A DNA stretch of 33,387 nucleotides from a bacterium (GTDB lineage: Bacteria > Auribacterota > UBA3054 > JAPLST01), in assembly GCA_026398485.1 (NCBI GenBank), contig JAPLST010000317.1, forward strand, positions 1 to 33,387, read 5' to 3'. Below are positions 2,244 through 33,387 of this stretch, piece after piece. A program made the position numbers and the translations under genes. The notes beneath the pieces are model-generated. The model was given only the letters and a program-made list of their open reading frames with translations, was not told where the DNA came from and ran no database searches. Position 1 is the first letter of the stretch, and each line of letters opens with the position of its first letter.

Positions 2244-3155
2244 TCACCGCAGGAACAGGGAGTTGCGGAAGTAATCGGACACCGGGCCGTACTCGCCAAA
2301 GTAGGGGACTTGGCCGCTGCCTTTCATGGCCGCCTTGATCTTGGGCGGGTAGCTCTTCCATGTGCCGGCCGGATCACTGGCATCGACAATCGCGGTCGTG
2401 AACGTGCCGCCGCTGCCGGTCGATTGGGACGTCTCGCCATCGGCGCAGCCGCCCCAATGGATCACCTGCACCGTGCCCTCGTCCGTGCGCGGGACAAAGC
2501 CGCGCAAGACCAGCTTGGGCCGCTGCGCCGGCGGCAGGTTGCGGTAATTCGATCCGCTGTTGCAGGTGTCGGTACAGAACCACAGGCGCAGGTGCGCCGG
2601 CATCTGGCGGAGAAGCATGCCAAAGCGGTTGTCAACGTACTGGCCGTCGTACAGGCAGAGCGTCTCGGACATGCCGTCCTCTTCGCTGGGGTCAAGCGGA
2701 TCGGCAACCTGGCCGCCATGGCCACTGAAGAACACGGCCAGCAGATCGTTGCTGCCCAGCACGGCGCAGGCGTCTTTTATGGCGCGCTCGAAGTTGGCGG
2801 CCGTGGCATCTTGGTTGGTCAACACGACAATCTCGCCCGGAGCAAAGCCCGCGTCGCGGCACATCTGGGCGACCGTCTCGCCATCCACGTCCGTGTCGGG
2901 CAGGTCGCCAGGCCAGCCGCCGTAAGCGTCCGGATCCACCGATCGGCAGTAGCCGATGACGGCGCGCCGCGCGGTGCCCGTGGTCTTGATCGCGTCAATG
3001 TTGTTGGTGATCAGCCCGATCACGTCATCAACATAATTGGTGGCGTTCGCGCCAAACCAATTGCTGATGGTCGAGCATCCCGTCAGCAGGATCATCAACT
3101 GCATAGCCACCGACATTACCAATCCCATCACTACCAGTTTGCCTGTCGCTTTCAT
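2244..3155 (-). CDS. caspase-fold (peptidase C14-like) lipoprotein
   Basis: N-terminus MKATGKLVVMGLVMSVAMQLMILLTGC carries a lipobox. His motif FFSGHGG and Cys motif FCTDTCNSGS have typical C14 spacing. The internal start at 3155 was chosen for its signal peptide and SD (AGGGG). Confidence 0.7.
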   Translation of the reverse strand: MKATGKLVVMGLVMSVAMQLMILLTGCSTISNWFGANATNYVDDVIGLITNNIDAIKTTGTARRAVIGYCRSVDPDAYGGWPGDLPDTDVDGETVAQMCRDAGFAPGEIVVLTNQDATAANFERAIKDACAVLGSNDLLAVFFSGHGGQVADPLDPSEEDGMSETLCLYDGQYVDNRFGMLLRQMPAHLRLWFCTDTCNSGSNYRNLPPAQRPKLVLRGFVPRTDEGTVQVIHWGGCADGETSQSTGSGGTFTTAIVDASDPAGTWKSYPPKIKAAMKGSGQVPYFGEYGPVSDYFRNSLFLR

Positions 3156-3168
3156 ACTGCCCCTGTTT

Positions 3169-3588
3169 TTAGAAGAATGATTTGGCGCCACTTGCCATAG
3201 TGGCCAGCCAACTAAACAATCCCTGCCCAAGACTGACCGGGATACCACACATGCTGTTGATCCAGCCGCTGTTCTTGGTGTCGAGCGTGAAGCTGAATGT
3301 CTTGTTGATCCCATCGTAATTGACGGTGCGGGTCACGTCGCCAAAGCCGGAGTTGCGCACGTCGGCCATGGCGCACTCGGTCACGAGCTGCTGCATGAAG
3401 TCGCCGCCGACCAGCGCGCGCTCGCGCAGCATGATTTTGACCGGATCATTCGTGATGCTGCCCGAATTGAGCCATTGCTCGTTGGCCGTGATCCCGTGCA
3501 AACCAGAGCAGCCCGGCAGCAAAGCGAACAAGCCGATTGCCACGAAGGAGCGAATAAGCGGCAGCGCCATCTTTGGTTTGTGCATCAT
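3169..3588 (-). CDS. lipoprotein of unknown function (139 aa)
   Basis: Lipobox in FALLPGCSG. ATGA overlap with the upstream gene at 3585-3588. Confidence 0.6.
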   Translation of the reverse strand: MMHKPKMALPLIRSFVAIGLFALLPGCSGLHGITANEQWLNSGSITNDPVKIMLRERALVGGDFMQQLVTECAMADVRNSGFGDVTRTVNYDGINKTFSFTLDTKNSGWINSMCGIPVSLGQGLFSWLATMASGAKSFF

Positions 3589-9318: not shown

Positions 9319-10773
9319 TCAAATTGGTTCATAACGGCTTTCCTTTATTTCTTTTGCCTTTCTCTTTAAATAAGTTACAATTTGCCCGCGGGAGAAGGCC
9401 ATCAGATATACATGTTTCTGACTCGCCGGGCTGATTGCCACAATCGTGCCACGCAATTTGTCACGATACAATCTACCTGAAATTGCTGTTGCAGAAAGGT
9501 TGTTGAGACTGTTGATGCTCACCTCATCGTGTGAGGCGATGTGCCCCAACACGTCCGGCATGGCAAACAAATCACTACCGGCAACCCCAAGCTGTTTCGC
9601 ACGGTCCTGATTAAGACGTCCAACATACACCCGCGCAGCATACTTTTCCAATTCCTTTTTCATGTTAGAATATGTTTCTGACAATGGCTCCTCAGCCATT
9701 GCCGTACTAAAATCACGATGCGGTTTGCTCATTGCAGTTAAGACTGGTTTAAGCATCGATCCGGCCACTTCACTACCACCGGCAATCCGTTCCAGTTCTT
9801 CCACTGACACAATGTTGGCGTTCATCCACGGCGGCGTCTGCTCGCGATACGTCTTGATCTTCTGGCGCATCTTCTCGGTCGCCTCGGTCGCGCGATACTT
9901 GCGCTCCTCATCCGTCCGCGCGCTGCCGATCACCGGCAGCAGCATGTGACTGCAGCGCGGGTGAAACGGAGGGCCGCCATCAATCCCGCTTCCGGGACAG
10001 GTTGAAAGAGCCGGGTAATTGGGATCCGTGCCGCTCTTGCTCCAGATCGTGCCCTCGAACGGCTTGCACACTTCCGCCGTCGTGTTGTGGTCATCCACCT
10101 GGAACAGATCGTAGCCGTCCTGGGCGGCCTGATTTACCACCGCCGCGTTGCCCAACTGCGTCACCCGGTGCTGGGCAACCAGGTCGCTGTACGATGCCAG
10201 GTTGTAGTTGCGGCCGTTGATCTGGATCAGCTTGCCGGTCACCGCGTTGGCCCACGGCGCCGCGGGGTCGAATCCGCCTGTCTGGTTCAGCCCGTCGAAT
10301 ATCTCGCGCGCGAGGTCATCGGTCGAGCCGCCACGCAGCGTGTAGCGCGTGTAGGCCTTCTCCAGCACCAGCCGCTGCTCGCGGCCGAGATTCATAGAGC
10401 CAACGACTCGTTTGGCCGTCTTGCCGGCCCGCTCAAAGCCCGCCGTCAACTCGCTTTCCAGCACAATCTGCTGCTGCTGGATCGTCAGGATGTCCAACTC
10501 GCCCGGCACGTTGCGCGCCATGCCCGAAAACTGCGTGGCTTTCGCCAGGGCGTCGTCATACGCCGCCGGCATCACTGCCTGAACACGTTTGTACACGTCC
10601 GGGTAGTACTTTTGCAGCGTCGCGTCAACACGCTGGAAGTGTTGCTCCAGGTGCCGCAGCCGATAGGGAGCCTCGGTGATGTATGCTTCAGCATGCACTA
10701 CTTCCGCCGCCAACTCGCGCGTCAGATCAACGAAGATCTGCGTCAGCGCTTCCTTGGCGGCATCCGCGCGCAT
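9319..10773 (-). CDS. MuF/SPP1 gp7-family minor head protein with a ~190-aa C-terminal extension
   Basis: MuF signature ...AEVCKPFEGTIWSKSG...GGPPFHPRCSHMLLPV. The C-terminal extension is encoded by lower-GC DNA (9319-9900) and contains LGHIASHDEVSINSLNNL.... Confidence 0.8.
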   Translation of the reverse strand: MRADAAKEALTQIFVDLTRELAAEVVHAEAYITEAPYRLRHLEQHFQRVDATLQKYYPDVYKRVQAVMPAAYDDALAKATQFSGMARNVPGELDILTIQQQQIVLESELTAGFERAGKTAKRVVGSMNLGREQRLVLEKAYTRYTLRGGSTDDLAREIFDGLNQTGGFDPAAPWANAVTGKLIQINGRNYNLASYSDLVAQHRVTQLGNAAVVNQAAQDGYDLFQVDDHNTTAEVCKPFEGTIWSKSGTDPNYPALSTCPGSGIDGGPPFHPRCSHMLLPVIGSARTDEERKYRATEATEKMRQKIKTYREQTPPWMNANIVSVEELERIAGGSEVAGSMLKPVLTAMSKPHRDFSTAMAEEPLSETYSNMKKELEKYAARVYVGRLNQDRAKQLGVAGSDLFAMPDVLGHIASHDEVSINSLNNLSATAISGRLYRDKLRGTIVAISPASQKHVYLMAFSRGQIVTYLKRKAKEIKESRYEPI

Positions 10774-30111: not shown

Positions 30112-30139
30112 TACCGTATACCGCTCACCGTATACCTTC
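30112..30139 (-). repeat. four tandem heptamers (plus strand TACCGTA TACCGCT CACCGTA TACCTTC) overlapping the CII-like stop
   Basis: Read directly from the sequence. It is a 29-nt identical copy of 29640-29668. Confidence 0.9.
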
Positions 30140-30625
30140 ATGCCGCTCGCACACCGCCAGTATCGCCACCAGCGCCGCCAGCGCCTCGCGGCATTCGCAC
30201 GCGATTAAGACCCGCTCCCGCGCCGTCAACACCCCGTCCTCGATGCAGCGCACCCACATGTCCACCGCCTCGCTCACTTCCTTCAGCGCCATCGCGCCGG
30301 CGTGCAGCCCCTGCGCCGTGCCCGGCAGCGGCAGCCGCACCGCCACCCGCCCCACCTGCGCCTCGATCCAGTCCAGCATGCGCGTGTCGCCGCTTTGCTT
30401 CACCACCAGGTGAAACTTGTCCATCGGGAAGTGGCGCATGTCCGGGCCTTCCACCGCGTCATAGTACCGATAGGTGTAGTTCAGCCGGTGGCCGCACACC
30501 TCGGCGATGATCTTCGCCATGCCGCAGTCCGACTCCTTGACCCACAGCGACAGCGCCTCAAGGTAATCCACCTGCGGGGAAATCAGCGCACCCCGTTCCA
30601 CTTTCATGTCGTTCGCATTCGTCAT
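30125..30625 (-). CDS. first early gene; possibly a CII/CP76-like regulatory protein (166 aa)
   Basis: The pattern HFPMDKFHLVVKQSGDTRMLDWIEAQVGRVAVRLP...EVSEAV...DGVLTARE loosely follows my memory of phage 186 CII-type proteins. The functional call is weak. Confidence 0.35.
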   Translation of the reverse strand: MTNANDMKVERGALISPQVDYLEALSLWVKESDCGMAKIIAEVCGHRLNYTYRYYDAVEGPDMRHFPMDKFHLVVKQSGDTRMLDWIEAQVGRVAVRLPLPGTAQGLHAGAMALKEVSEAVDMWVRCIEDGVLTARERVLIACECREALAALVAILAVCERHEGIR

Positions 30626-30759
30626 ATCATGTTCTCATGCGATCATCACGGTTACAAGAAGAGCGGCGCGCGGGGTTCGGTTGTGTATGGTTCCCGTTGG
30701 GAGCACTGAGGAGGGTACTTGCTGTCCCGCGCGCCGCAGAAGAAGTGCCCCCGCCACTT

Positions 30760-30768
30760 TGGTATAAT
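30760..30768 (+). promoter_or_regulatory. extended -10 promoter element TGgTATAAT
   Basis: Perfect TATAAT at 30763-30768 with TG at 30760-30761, 45 nt upstream of the ATG at 30814. Confidence 0.5.
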
Positions 30769-30813
30769 GGACGGCATCCAGCGATCCATTTAACCCCAGC
30801 AGCGGGAGCGCAC

Positions 30814-31251
30814 ATGTCAGGTGAATTTATTACAGCAACCATCATCAGCAGCATCATCGCCGCAGCCAACACGGCCATCGCATACTTCGCTCTTGTTTCA
30901 ATCAAGAGCGTCATCCGCATTGGCGAAGCCAACCTGGCCGTCCTAAACCGCGAAGCCATGTCCATCACAATCAACCCGACTGCGGCGTCTACCATACAGG
31001 CCATCTTCTCAATCAAACAACCTGGTGTTGATTTCCACATTGAATCTATCTCAGTGTCCAAGTATAAGCGGCAGGGCGACGGGTGCCACATAAGGGACAC
31101 CGTGCACGCAATCCCGTTTTCCCGCACCATCGTCAAGGGAGCGCAGAACTACTTCGACCTGCCCAGTCAGATTGATCCCCGCCAAGGCGACATCATTACC
31201 TTTGCCGGCAAACTCAATGGTGTACCGTTCTCCATCTCCGCCGCCTTGTGA
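30814..31251 (+). CDS. N-terminally anchored membrane protein (145 aa)
   Basis: GGGAG lies 5 nt upstream of the ATG at 30814. MSGEFITATIISSIIAAANTAIAYFALV is followed by a beta-rich domain. GC3 is high in this frame. The ORF-track N-terminal extension is R/P-rich. Confidence 0.6.
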   Translation: MSGEFITATIISSIIAAANTAIAYFALVSIKSVIRIGEANLAVLNREAMSITINPTAASTIQAIFSIKQPGVDFHIESISVSKYKRQGDGCHIRDTVHAIPFSRTIVKGAQNYFDLPSQIDPRQGDIITFAGKLNGVPFSISAAL

Positions 31252-31444
31252 AATTAGATGCCATCCAAGCCATCCAACTACTAAAAAAAGCATGATTGAA
31301 CTCAACAGCAACACCAGCATTCCCATGAACACACCTATGTTTTCTGCAACTTCATTCCATCTTCGATTCATAGCTTTTAATTGTTGCCCGGCTGTTCGTG
31401 TTTTACGAACATGCCAAATGAAAAAAAGATGGCCGGGGACGCTT

Positions 31445-31458
31445 TCACTGGCAAGTGA
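31445..31458. promoter_or_regulatory. operator-like palindrome TCACT-GGCA-AGTGA (site 1)
   Basis: Perfect 5+5 inverted repeat upstream of the XRE gene. It shares the flank CTTTCACT with site 2. Confidence 0.45.
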
Positions 31459-31519
31459 GATCGGTGAGACCAATCGCGCCGCGCCGGCCATCCTGTGTTG
31501 CTATGTACTATTTCTTCTT

Positions 31520-31533
31520 TCACTTGCCAGTGT
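31520..31533. promoter_or_regulatory. operator-like palindrome TCACT-TGCC-AGTGT (site 2)
   Basis: 9/10 inverted repeat, 75 bp centre-to-centre from site 1. Confidence 0.4.
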
Positions 31534-31659
31534 CACAGATCGGGTTAATCTGAACCGCCCTGCTTTCGGGCGTCTGCGAACAGTATAACATATTTACGAA
31601 CAAAAGTCAAGCCCCCCGCCTTTTGACCTTTCAAGTGCTACAATTATGCTGTGAGACCA

Positions 31660-31998
31660 ATGCTCGGTACAATTCTGAAAGCGGCACGCGAGCACAAGGG
31701 CTGGACACAACAGGAACTCGCCGGCCACATGCGCGTGAAACACCCAATGATTGTCCGTTGGGAACTCGGCAAGAGTGGCAAACAGCAGTACCTGCCGTCG
31801 CCGGCGCGGCTGACGCGGCTGTGTGAGCTGCTGGGCATCGACGAGCGGCACGCGCAACTGCTGTGGGCGCAGGACATGCTGATCCGCAAGTTCGGCCAGG
31901 CGGCCTTCGACGATCTGGTCGCGCAACTGCACCTGGCCGATCTCCTGCCCCGCCTGCTCAAGCAATACCAACCCCCGCCGATCACACACACCAGGTGA
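31660..31998 (+). CDS. XRE-family HTH regulator (repressor-like, 112 aa)
   Basis: MLGTILKAAREHKGWTQQELAGHMRVKHPMIVRWELGK is a classical XRE/Cro-CI HTH. An alternative GTG start lies at 31651. Confidence 0.8.
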   Translation: MLGTILKAAREHKGWTQQELAGHMRVKHPMIVRWELGKSGKQQYLPSPARLTRLCELLGIDERHAQLLWAQDMLIRKFGQAAFDDLVAQLHLADLLPRLLKQYQPPPITHTR

Positions 31999-32001
31999 CT
32001 T

Positions 32002-33210
32002 ATGTTCAAACGCTTTTTGTTTTTGGTTTTACTCATCATAGTGTCCATCATAGTCATTAACTTGACGGACAGCCAGTTGGTCTGCTGGGCAGTTATTGTG
32101 ACTGACGTCATAATCGCGATACGGTGCGCATTTCCATCAAAACCAGCCAAGCTTGTTGCGCGTTCAACTGCCATTGCAGAACCATGTGATGTTGTTGTGA
32201 AATCCAGCAGCATTTGCACGGAGCCAAAACCAGATAACACTGATTTGCTTTCATCCACCACTATTATATTGGGCAAAGAAACCCGCTTACCGCTAACCTT
32301 GATAGCGGACAATATAGGTACCCGCCAAGTGATCGAGGAATTATTCGCGGGAAGTGGTCGCAATGATTCCAAACGCGGCCTCATAGAATCATTGGTATTG
32401 AGCGGTAGATTGACTTGTCCTGAACTTGATCGCTATGTGAAGAAGTATGCCTCTGCCTACGAAAAAAACATTGCGAAATTGAAACAGGCGCTTGGCAATG
32501 ATCATAGTATAGATGATGACATCATTGAACAAGCCTGCTCGACATGGCCATTTTCACAGCGCGACATATCTCTCATATACAAGAATAGCGACGCCTTTGC
32601 ATCACGTAACATAGAGCTTTTAATGGAATTTGGATTCAGTGCTCTTCAAACCTATTTGTTCAACGCGGGCAAGGTGATAAACGCAAAATACTGCGAAAAA
32701 ACAGTCATCGAAACACTGACCGACAAGGGGCTTGTAGCACCAATAAGTGAAGCGCCAATGTCGGACATATTATGTGCTCTTTCGGTTGATCAAATAAGGT
32801 TGTTGTGTGACAAGACAGGTGCTCCAAGAAGAAGAAGCAAGGCAGAGATGGCAGACGAAATAGTAAAAATAGCGGGCAACGAAAATGTTCTCCAGGATGC
32901 TGTGCGAGATTTGCCGCTGCTTTTGCTGCGTGATGAAAAAAGGATCACATCGGCATCATCACATAGCGTGAATGCTGACTCATGCATGTACAGTGCAACC
33001 TATAGCGACATTCTAATTGAAACACACGACGCTGCAGTGCGGGCGGTCGGCGATTATAAAGATTCAAGAGAATATACAGACCACTGGTCTATATTTAGTT
33101 GTGGATGTCCGTGCTGCAAAAAATATGAAACAATGAAGTGGAGCAAGAAGTCGCCGCCAAAAATTCCGTTTCACATTGGCTGCACATGCTTATTACAGCC
33201 CAATGGTTGA
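32002..33210 (+). CDS. low-GC membrane protein (402 aa) with a SAP-like motif and a MuF-like C-terminal Cys/His motif
   Basis: Starts 3 nt after the XRE stop. Two N-terminal hydrophobic helices. LSVDQIRLLCDKTGAPRRRSKAEMADEIVK is SAP-like. The C-terminus is CGCPCCKKYETMKWSKKSPPKIPFHIGCTCLLQP. Confidence 0.7.
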   Translation: MFKRFLFLVLLIIVSIIVINLTDSQLVCWAVIVTDVIIAIRCAFPSKPAKLVARSTAIAEPCDVVVKSSSICTEPKPDNTDLLSSTTIILGKETRLPLTLIADNIGTRQVIEELFAGSGRNDSKRGLIESLVLSGRLTCPELDRYVKKYASAYEKNIAKLKQALGNDHSIDDDIIEQACSTWPFSQRDISLIYKNSDAFASRNIELLMEFGFSALQTYLFNAGKVINAKYCEKTVIETLTDKGLVAPISEAPMSDILCALSVDQIRLLCDKTGAPRRRSKAEMADEIVKIAGNENVLQDAVRDLPLLLLRDEKRITSASSHSVNADSCMYSATYSDILIETHDAAVRAVGDYKDSREYTDHWSIFSCGCPCCKKYETMKWSKKSPPKIPFHIGCTCLLQPNG

Positions 33211-33264
33211 CGCCGGCGCTGCAGTCTGCTATACTGATCCTGTAACCCCGTGACCACAACGACC

Positions 33265-33387
33265 ATGAGCGCCACCTTCACCGCCGTCATCCACCGCGAA
33301 GGCAAATTATATGTCGCCTACTGCCCGGAAGTCGGCACAGCCAGCCAGGGCACGACCATTCCCGCCGCCGTCGCCAACCTGCGCGAG
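33265..33387 (+). CDS. HicB-family antitoxin-like protein (N-terminal fragment; continues past the window)
   Basis: MSATFTAVIHREGKLYVAYCPEVGTASQGTTIPAAVANLRE fits the HicB/UPF0150 N-terminal pattern. Confidence 0.65.
   Translation, partial: MSATFTAVIHREGKLYVAYCPEVGTASQGTTIPAAVANLRE

Follow-up and report, generated by a model that had tools for sequence, protein, structure and literature searches.

In the lambda cI-rexA-rexB region and its kin, a foreign membrane-protein gene lies directly downstream of the immunity repressor gene and is co-oriented with it. The same layout, known also from other lysogen-expressed exclusion genes beside a repressor or an integrase gene (SieB, HK97 gp15 and the prophage-mediated defences of mycobacteriophages), is present in the bacterial DNA analysed here, the complete contig JAPLST010000317.1 of 33,387 bp (hereafter the window; overall GC content 58.5%), in which a gene for an XRE-type repressor is followed by a gene for a 402-residue protein, P0001. 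This protein has no sequence relationship to the products of any of these genes (PADLOC and PHROG scans negative). It differs from the lambda rex type also in forming a system of a single gene, in combining a MuF core with a SAP-like region, both probably cytoplasmic, and in being known from sequence alone.

Another closely related group of described proteins is the MuF superfamily (Mu gpF, SPP1 gp7; PF04233 Phage_Mu_F, PF06152 Phage_min_cap2; PHROGs 241 and 115). MuF/gp7 proteins are found in about a third of tailed phages, and to our knowledge no biochemical function has been assigned to their conserved core. They are minor head proteins that bind the portal and DNA, almost always encoded beside the portal gene and otherwise of undefined biochemical function (PMC5576092, PMC5512222); SPP1 gp7 is a portal-bound, DNA-binding protein, and 96% of muf genes lie within prophage packaging modules (PMC5576092). 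The literature searched for MuF in defence or in zinc binding included only the known head-protein and toxin-delivery roles. The C-terminal 50-80 residues of the MuF proteins and of the 402-residue protein family are alike, with a common signature of a helix followed by C-x2-C ... P-P-x-P-x-H-x-x-C-x-C/H, whereas the N-terminal ~200 residues of MuF have no significant match in the family, which instead adds an N-terminal membrane anchor and a SAP-like/FAN1-like middle part. Also the gene positions differ, as the family genes lie in the lysogeny module or outside phages and never beside portal or terminase genes, and P0001 itself stays below the thresholds of PF04233 and PF06152.

Both the layout with a 'moron' behind the repressor and the MuF core are known, while their combination in a membrane-anchored, SAP-like family outside the packaging modules appears to be new: a protein joining membrane anchor, SAP-like region and MuF core was not described in the libraries or literature searched. 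We tentatively suggest, well short of thinking it probable, that P0001 is a lysogen-expressed, membrane-tethered protein with a MuF core and DNA-binding capacity, acting in phage-versus-phage exclusion. The family thus adds a candidate class to the exclusion or defence genes that prophages encode, and it is also a handle on what the MuF Cys/His core binds.

Position and composition of the gene behind the repressor

The minus strand of the window carries the structural and early genes, including a cII-like activator gene at 30125-30625; the structural genes and the 402-residue gene lie at opposite contig ends. The features compared here are the following.

31651/31660-31998, plus strand: gene for an XRE/Cro-CI-type helix-turn-helix (HTH) repressor, GC 62.9%, GC at third codon positions (GC3) 0.776, detected by Pfam and PHROG scans.
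32002-33210, plus strand: gene for the 402-residue protein P0001, GC 44.3%, GC3 0.457, a low-GC insert.
9319-10773, minus strand: gene for the resident MuF-superfamily head protein, PF06152 / MuF2 type (phrog_4611), used as comparison partner only.

The XRE protein matched HTH_31, HTH_3 and HTH_19 of Pfam with E-values from 6e-10 to 4e-8, and repressor families of PHROGs as well. It has 115 aa when read from the GTG at 31651 and 112 aa when read from the ATG at 31660, the latter being the more likely start. Its TGA stop codon at 31996-31998 is followed after 3 nt by the ATG of the 402-residue gene at 32002, in agreement with the sequence-only reading of the window made earlier; the GC content of about 40% given there for the gene was too low.

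The GC3 of the 402-residue gene stands out against that of the XRE gene, the cII-like gene (0.874) and the resident MuF gene (0.693), and the break in composition coincides with both ends of the open reading frame (ORF). The composition supports a horizontally acquired insert that reaches exactly from the XRE stop codon to that of the gene itself. In a consensus scan, the stretch between the two genes had no promoter-like or terminator-like site. The layout is accordingly Rex-like, with a gene adjoining the repressor gene, co-oriented with it and separated from it by neither promoter nor terminator. Inserted between the XRE stop codon and the next promoter, the gene would be transcribed together with the repressor in the lysogen.

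The protein family and its MuF-like C-terminus

An exhaustive HMMER search of 1.84 billion cluster representatives with a cut-off of E <= 1e-3 identified 95 relatives of P0001, 13 of them at E <= 1e-10. The relatives are mostly 340-500 aa long and about 25% identical, and they align over residues ~89-400 of P0001. Judged from these alignments, P0001 belongs to a real, widespread and unnamed family. A word-indexed homology search returned only the query itself, and its family-profile version added just two proteins; single-protein searches of GTDB genomes and IMG/VR returned no relatives. When a DNA pattern for one variant of the family motif was used, 34 loci were found in 185,579 species genomes, and in about 30 of these the encoded proteins matched the family hidden Markov model (HMM) at 1e-30 to 1e-157. 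The pattern loci came from Bacteroidota, Ignavibacteria, Planctomycetota, Nitrospirota, Nitrospinota, Deltaproteobacteria, Acidobacteriota, Gammaproteobacteria and Firmicutes. Altogether the family extends over about ten bacterial phyla, and it is present also in a methanogen and in another archaeal-looking contig.

Neither P0001 nor three fragments of it gave anything significant in Pfam, PHROGs, NCBIfam or PADLOC, and the sequence searches of the PDB, made with the single protein and with the profile, gave only chance-level matches. No recurrent family was found in the PADLOC scan of 50 members. The family is thus invisible to these four libraries, and its members are labelled 'hypothetical' where they are named at all.

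The N-terminus varies among the members and mostly contains a single hydrophobic helix; it is followed by a linker that is not conserved and by a conserved region of about 310 residues. An N-terminal transmembrane anchor is present in 60 of the 96 sequences. The C-terminal signature, C-x2-C/A ... K-x-Y-x5-P-x2-P-x-H-[IVL]-G-C-x-C, is nearly invariant, and its core P..P.H[IVL]GC.C is found in 76 of the 96. Residues C369, P389, H391, C394 and C396 (numbering of P0001) are invariant in 50 sequences and conserved to at least 90% in all 96.

Pairwise BLASTP of P0001 against the resident MuF gave E = 0.003 over 92 columns. A sensitive profile comparison with hhalign, in which the family alignment was set against the resident MuF together with 13 homologues, produced a single match of 80 columns between family residues 325-402 and MuF residues 187-283 (P = 3.1e-4). 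Its score of 40.1 was higher than those of all 200 column shuffles (13.0 +/- 2.1, maximum 25.1) and of the reversed control (16.4). In this match C369, H391, C394 and C396 are aligned with C236, H271, C274 and H276 of the MuF family, and the 402-residue family has the MuF Cys/His core (C ... PP.H..C.C/H). Also the PHROG scans of 50 members detected head proteins: nine matched phrog_241 ('head morphogenesis', best E 8.9e-9), nine phrog_115 ('minor head protein', best 1.4e-6), and there were matches to other head-morphogenesis PHROGs, all falling within the last ~50 residues in the individual scans. PF04233 was matched by five of the 50 members, weakly (best E 0.0016). The C-terminus of P0001 alone had no Pfam match even at E <= 10, and the curated MuF threshold was not reached. 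MuF proteins encoded on viral contigs beside portal, scaffold and capsid genes include the P-x2-P-x-HIGC-x-C variant and match the C-terminus of the family HMM at 2e-13 to 4e-10; these contigs were picked by the motif and are illustrative, not independent. The only plasmid match was between the C-terminus and a gene annotated 'portal protein'.

Taken together, these comparisons indicate that the last 50-80 residues are homologous, beyond chance, to the core of the MuF head proteins. The likeness pointed out in the sequence-only reading is significant, but the part of that reading which saw in it a copy of the phage's own MuF did not hold. Such copying was rejected because the HMM of the resident MuF family found no member above the reversed decoys. 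The resident MuF matches best PF06152 and phrog_4611, not the PHROG groups matched by the 402-residue family.

The architecture of P0001 was examined with the alignment and with an AlphaFold2 model, which had a mean predicted local distance difference test score (pLDDT) of 85.6 and a predicted template modelling score (pTM) of 0.74 when run with the 96-sequence alignment, and which was unusable as a single-sequence run (pLDDT 39). The following parts were distinguished, all on the plus strand.

32005-32130, residues 2-19 and 23-43: two transmembrane helices (hydropathy and AlphaFold model, pLDDT 75-93).
32137-32238, residues 46-79: disordered, poorly conserved linker (pLDDT <50).
32260-32973, residues 87-324: conserved soluble region (alignment and model).
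32758-32871, residues 253-290, LSVDQIRLLCDKTGAPRRRSKAEMADEIVKI: SAP-like helix-extended-helix motif (conserved block, predicted helices).
32974-33207, residues 325-402: MuF-core-like C-terminal module (BLASTP, hhalign, PHROG).
33106-33189: putative ligand codons, C369 at 33106-33108, H391 at 33172-33174, C394 at 33181-33183 and C396 at 33187-33189.

Two N-terminal transmembrane helices had been predicted earlier, and hydropathy and the model both agree with this. Lysine and arginine residues (K/R) at both ends of the helix pair imply an N-in/C-in topology, and the positive-inside rule would place the soluble part on the cytoplasmic side. In 44 of 54 homologues with a single transmembrane helix, the C-terminal flank is the richer in K/R. 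A cytoplasmic orientation would also suit a Cys/His metal site.

The soluble region consists of a small beta/alpha unit (87-135) and a helical domain (140-320), in which E141 is invariant and Y145, Y153, R233, E237 and K280 are nearly so. The SAP-like segment within it belongs to the family block L.LK.LN...F.RK..AIE.L, and its helices in the model cover residues 253-259, 262-272 and 280-289. A SAP-like motif had been noted earlier; the segment is a conserved block whose SAP character is seen at fold level only, and no SAP match was found in Pfam for P0001 or its fragments, nor among the recurrent families listed for 50 members. In the Foldseek search of the PDB, FAN1 (Fanconi-associated nuclease 1), which has a SAP domain, made up 14 of the 18 best matches, including the first 14. 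The best of them, 4rea_B, had E 1.6e-3, probability 1.0 and a global template modelling score (TM-score) of 0.24, while a FAN1 fragment of 183 residues, 9cg4_E, had a TM-score of 0.47 when normalised to the target. The part matched is the N-terminal/SAP-TPR region of FAN1, which is consistent with a DNA-binding module of the SAP type. The identity to FAN1 is, however, 13-16%, with no sequence-level match, and P0001 has no VRR-NUC nuclease domain. Among viral models the top matches, all of them weak, included SAP-domain proteins as well as models labelled 'Head morphogenesis protein', 'MuF-like minor capsid protein' and 'Minor capsid protein 2'; the matches containing SAP (FAN1 and the viral SAP-domain proteins) have low TM-scores.

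The C-terminal module starts with a long helix (325-358), after which a beta-hairpin knuckle (361-401) bears the Cys/His residues, in P0001 C369-P-C-C ... P386-P-K-I-P389-F-H391-I-G-C394-T-C396. C369, H391, C394 and C396 are putative ligands of a metal, probably zinc.

Two members have additional N-terminal parts. Residues 43-133 of P0035 match the N-terminus of the PADLOC candidate PDC-S62 (E 2.3e-10), on which no literature was found in our search; the match suggests domain shuffling between the family and a candidate defence gene. PDC-S62 was dropped as a lead to the function of the family, as the common domain of about 90 residues is an extra one of this single member, outside the conserved core and lacking in P0001. 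In P0051, a zinc-ribbon and transmembrane module (C-x2-C ... EI.LW.FF ... C-P-x-C) is fused to the N-terminus, and the same module is found as a gene of its own (81 aa), 6 nt before the gene of another member (L027:2569-2814). This fusion/fission pair hints at a functional partner.

Genomic contexts and possible functions

The surroundings of the family genes were surveyed in 38 independent loci (L002-L045, L056-L059) with precomputed Pfam annotations, ORF calls and two Pfam scans; among them is L024 of Aquimarina latercula DSM 2041, a cultivable host. No conserved partner gene was found among the 112 flanking proteins, the commonest neighbour families being Peptidase_S24 (three) and transposase-type HTH (three). 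The survey did find co-occurrence with repressor genes in prophages: the window and five further loci have a co-oriented repressor gene directly 5' of the family gene.

L007, Ignavibacteriota: HTH protein, Peptidase_S24, outer-membrane-like protein, then the family gene, with divergent small early genes.
L023, Nitrospirota: HTH_3/Phage_CI_repr protein before the family gene.
L040, Bacteroidales: HTH_26 and S24 repressor, 22-nt gap.
L044, Bacteroidales: HTH and S24 repressor, 17-nt gap, divergent Cro-like gene.
L056: repressor-like HTH/coiled-coil protein divergent from a ribbon-helix-helix (RHH) protein, then the family gene, then an integrase gene.

The family proteins of the window, L007, L023, L040 and L044 are only 20-45% identical to each other (L056 was not compared), so that the repressor linkage must have arisen, or been retained, on many occasions. 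Only about six of the 38 loci have an adjacent HTH or S24 gene, and these genes are phage cI-type repressors. The order of repressor and family gene thus recurs in diverged loci, but an obligate pairing with XRE does not, as most homologues have no such neighbour. Other loci are located beside defence genes or mobile elements.

L002: integrase/RteC element with SMODS and S_4TM, and GmrSD.
L011: Eco57I/BsuBI restriction-modification, RNase_T and ApeA-HEPN.
L029: HpaII endonuclease.
L033: integrase and primase element.
L021: transposase.

At all loci checked the family gene was poorer in GC than its surroundings, the difference being 0.7 to 10 points. None of the 38 loci has a portal or terminase gene as a neighbour, and the placement in a packaging module that is typical of MuF was not found.

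Some of these loci contain further features. The regions L040:1020-4246 and L044:118-4457 look like Mu-type transposable prophages: besides the S24 repressor they have a Ner/Cro-like gene, an ORF of the size of a transposase gene and what by eye is a MuB-like HTH-ATPase. Here the family gene is at the extreme end, beyond the repressor. In L007 (9549-17161), the prophage end with the family gene adjoins an MmeI-type restriction-modification enzyme and a CRISPR-Cas cluster of type IV (Csf1/Csf3/Cas6) that includes a PAPS-reductase-like gene.

The exclusion reading proposed here would work as follows. The gene would be a 'moron' inserted between the XRE stop codon and the next promoter, and its product would be anchored in the inner membrane by the two N-terminal helices, with the remainder in the cytoplasm: a flexible linker, a helical SAP-like/FAN1-like domain and a C-terminal Cys/His (probably zinc) knuckle. 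This tethered mimic would engage the targets of the MuF core, namely the portal vertex of another infecting phage, its DNA end, or both, and the target, held at the membrane, would no longer allow genome entry, head assembly or packaging. The result would be superinfection exclusion by a decoy or tether without an enzymatic effector; no recognisable enzymatic domain was found in the family. Since the resident MuF belongs to another subtype, the prophage itself might plausibly be spared. That the family is a hitherto unrecognised single-gene anti-phage system, in which the portal- and DNA-binding core of MuF was captured on the side of the host or prophage and, tethered to the inner membrane, serves as a decoy or sensor recognising the portal vertex or the genome end when tailed phages come in, is rather doubtful. 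If true, a virion-assembly domain would have been domesticated for defence in about ten bacterial phyla and in archaea.

Several observations weigh against exclusion as the function. About half of the loci look like ordinary chromosomal sites among housekeeping genes with no visible mobile element (L003, L005, L006, L009, L058, L059 and several of L012-L045). Searches of 50,697 sequenced phage records by blastn and tblastn, for which the window DNA, the proteins P0001 and P0027 and the homologue from L044 served as queries, gave no match, and the family was not found in IMG/VR by the searches used. A clear transmembrane helix is lacking in about a third of the members. The MuF homology is confined to the last 50-80 residues, and we know of no MuF protein in which portal or DNA binding has been mapped to this stretch of the core. 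P0001 is also the most divergent of the repressor-linked members, with an 8-residue deletion within a conserved block. In the window itself, no Cro-like gene opposite the XRE gene was recognised in the ~1 kb between the cII-like gene and XRE, and the XRE protein is only the putative, not the proven, master repressor of the phage. The family is accordingly a testable candidate, not a demonstrated system.

The closest rival reading is abortive infection by a sensor and pore, in which the MuF-like module would bind an infecting phage's portal (a dodecamer) or its packaging complex and the transmembrane helices would cluster, so that the membrane depolarises and the cell dies before phage release. 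Other defence proteins, such as Avs4 and CapRel, sense portal or capsid, and transmembrane effectors are common in abortive infection. The repressor-linked and defence-island loci suit this reading as well as they suit exclusion, and it can draw on the anchor of the 60 members and on a faint resemblance of the transmembrane region of P0001 to the '4TM effector' model of PADLOC. That match is not significant (E 0.059), however, and most members have a single short transmembrane helix of no conserved sequence, about a third having none at all; no oligomerisation or pore-forming domain was detected either, and we regard the reading as unlikely. Because of the many housekeeping contexts, the main rival outside phage conflict is a cellular tether between membrane and DNA, serving in nucleoid or plasmid anchoring, DNA uptake or repair and hitch-hiking as prophage cargo. 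It would fit the neighbours uvrC/uvrB in a methanogen (L009), a 2-oxoacid dehydrogenase and an fts cluster (L006) and an ABC transporter gene (L003, where the family gene follows it), the CoiA-like nuclease domain of one neighbour, the wide phyletic spread with archaea included, and the DNA binding suggested by the FAN1-like/SAP-like fold. Yet the family is patchy and of low abundance, with about 30 confirmed loci in the 185,579 species genomes for the one motif variant, it has no conserved neighbourhood, its GC content is below that of the locus in all loci checked and in the window, and its repressor-linked placement recurs across phyla. These traits are typical of mobile accessory genes rather than of housekeeping genes, and a cellular tether seems on balance an unlikely function.

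A role in the prophage's own life cycle, either tethering its genome or procapsids at the membrane or tuning the repressor to a membrane signal, would agree with the position directly behind the repressor in six loci, and between repressor and integrase in L056, and with a domain shared with a virion assembly protein. The foreign composition, by contrast, marks a recent insert, the resident phage already encodes a MuF, and the family was not found in the sequenced phages searched, most homologues lying outside prophages; such a role is improbable. The tight coupling of the two genes, with the XRE gene first and a gap of 3 nt, brings to mind a toxin-antitoxin or addiction pair in which XRE would be the antitoxin and the membrane protein the toxin, the more so as XRE weakly matches HTH components of PADLOC systems and a HicB-like gene adjoins. 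Most family members nevertheless lack an HTH neighbour, and where there is one it is usually a full cI/LexA-type repressor with HTH and S24, divergent from a Cro-like gene. Neither did Pfam, NCBIfam and PADLOC scans detect a known toxin domain in P0001. An obligate partnership with XRE was ruled out by the neighbourhood survey, in which the pairing was not conserved, and a toxin-antitoxin function is very unlikely.

Other features of the window

The promoter-like sites around the two genes and the ORF that follows them are these.

31623-31650, plus strand: promoter-like site TTGACC-16-TATGCT directly 5' of the XRE start, putative, found by consensus match only.
31582-31610, minus strand: divergent promoter-like site TTGACT-17-TATACT, with 10 of 12 matches and a TG extension.
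33207-33235, plus strand: strong promoter-like site TTGACG-17-TATACT, beginning at the stop codon of the 402-residue gene.
33267-33387, plus strand: ORF cut off by the contig end (MSATFTAVIHREGKLYVAYCPEVGTASQGTTIPAAVANLRE), which by eye resembles a HicB-type antitoxin in its N-terminal part.

The divergent minus-strand site is back-to-back with that of the XRE gene and is the stronger of the two. As the ATG at 31660 is located about 10 nt past the -10 element (TATGCT, 31645-31650), the repressor would be translated from an mRNA with no leader or almost none, like the lambda cI mRNA transcribed from PRM. The site at 33207-33235 would serve the HicB-like ORF and would set the 3' limit of the putative transcription unit of the XRE and 402-residue genes.

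Upstream of the XRE gene, a palindrome of 12-16 bp (CACTGGCAAGTG / CACTTGCCAGTG) is present in two copies, at 31446-31458 and 31520-31532, with a spacing of 75 bp. Short duplicated sequences were also found, TTTACGAACA at 31402 and 31593 and GTGAGACCAAT at 31464 and 31651. The palindromes and duplications (31402-31661) are candidate operators, or else a candidate partial duplication of the XRE promoter region. The gap at 30626-31580 contains a lower-GC plus-strand ORF of 146 aa (30814-31251) with an N-terminal transmembrane helix, which overlaps a minus-strand transmembrane ORF of 106 aa (31371-31051); only one of the two may be real.

No tRNA genes were found in the window. At the left contig end a truncated plus-strand ORF (1-224; IVTSDGDFHCLVKYLYESGKLRAVLSP...) resembles by eye an NYN/LabA-type domain and may be host DNA beside a prophage. 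Near the distal end of the late region, a minus-strand ORF of 356 aa (2244-3314) begins like a lipoprotein and contains what by eye is a caspase-like His/Cys dyad (FFSGHGG ... DTCNSG).

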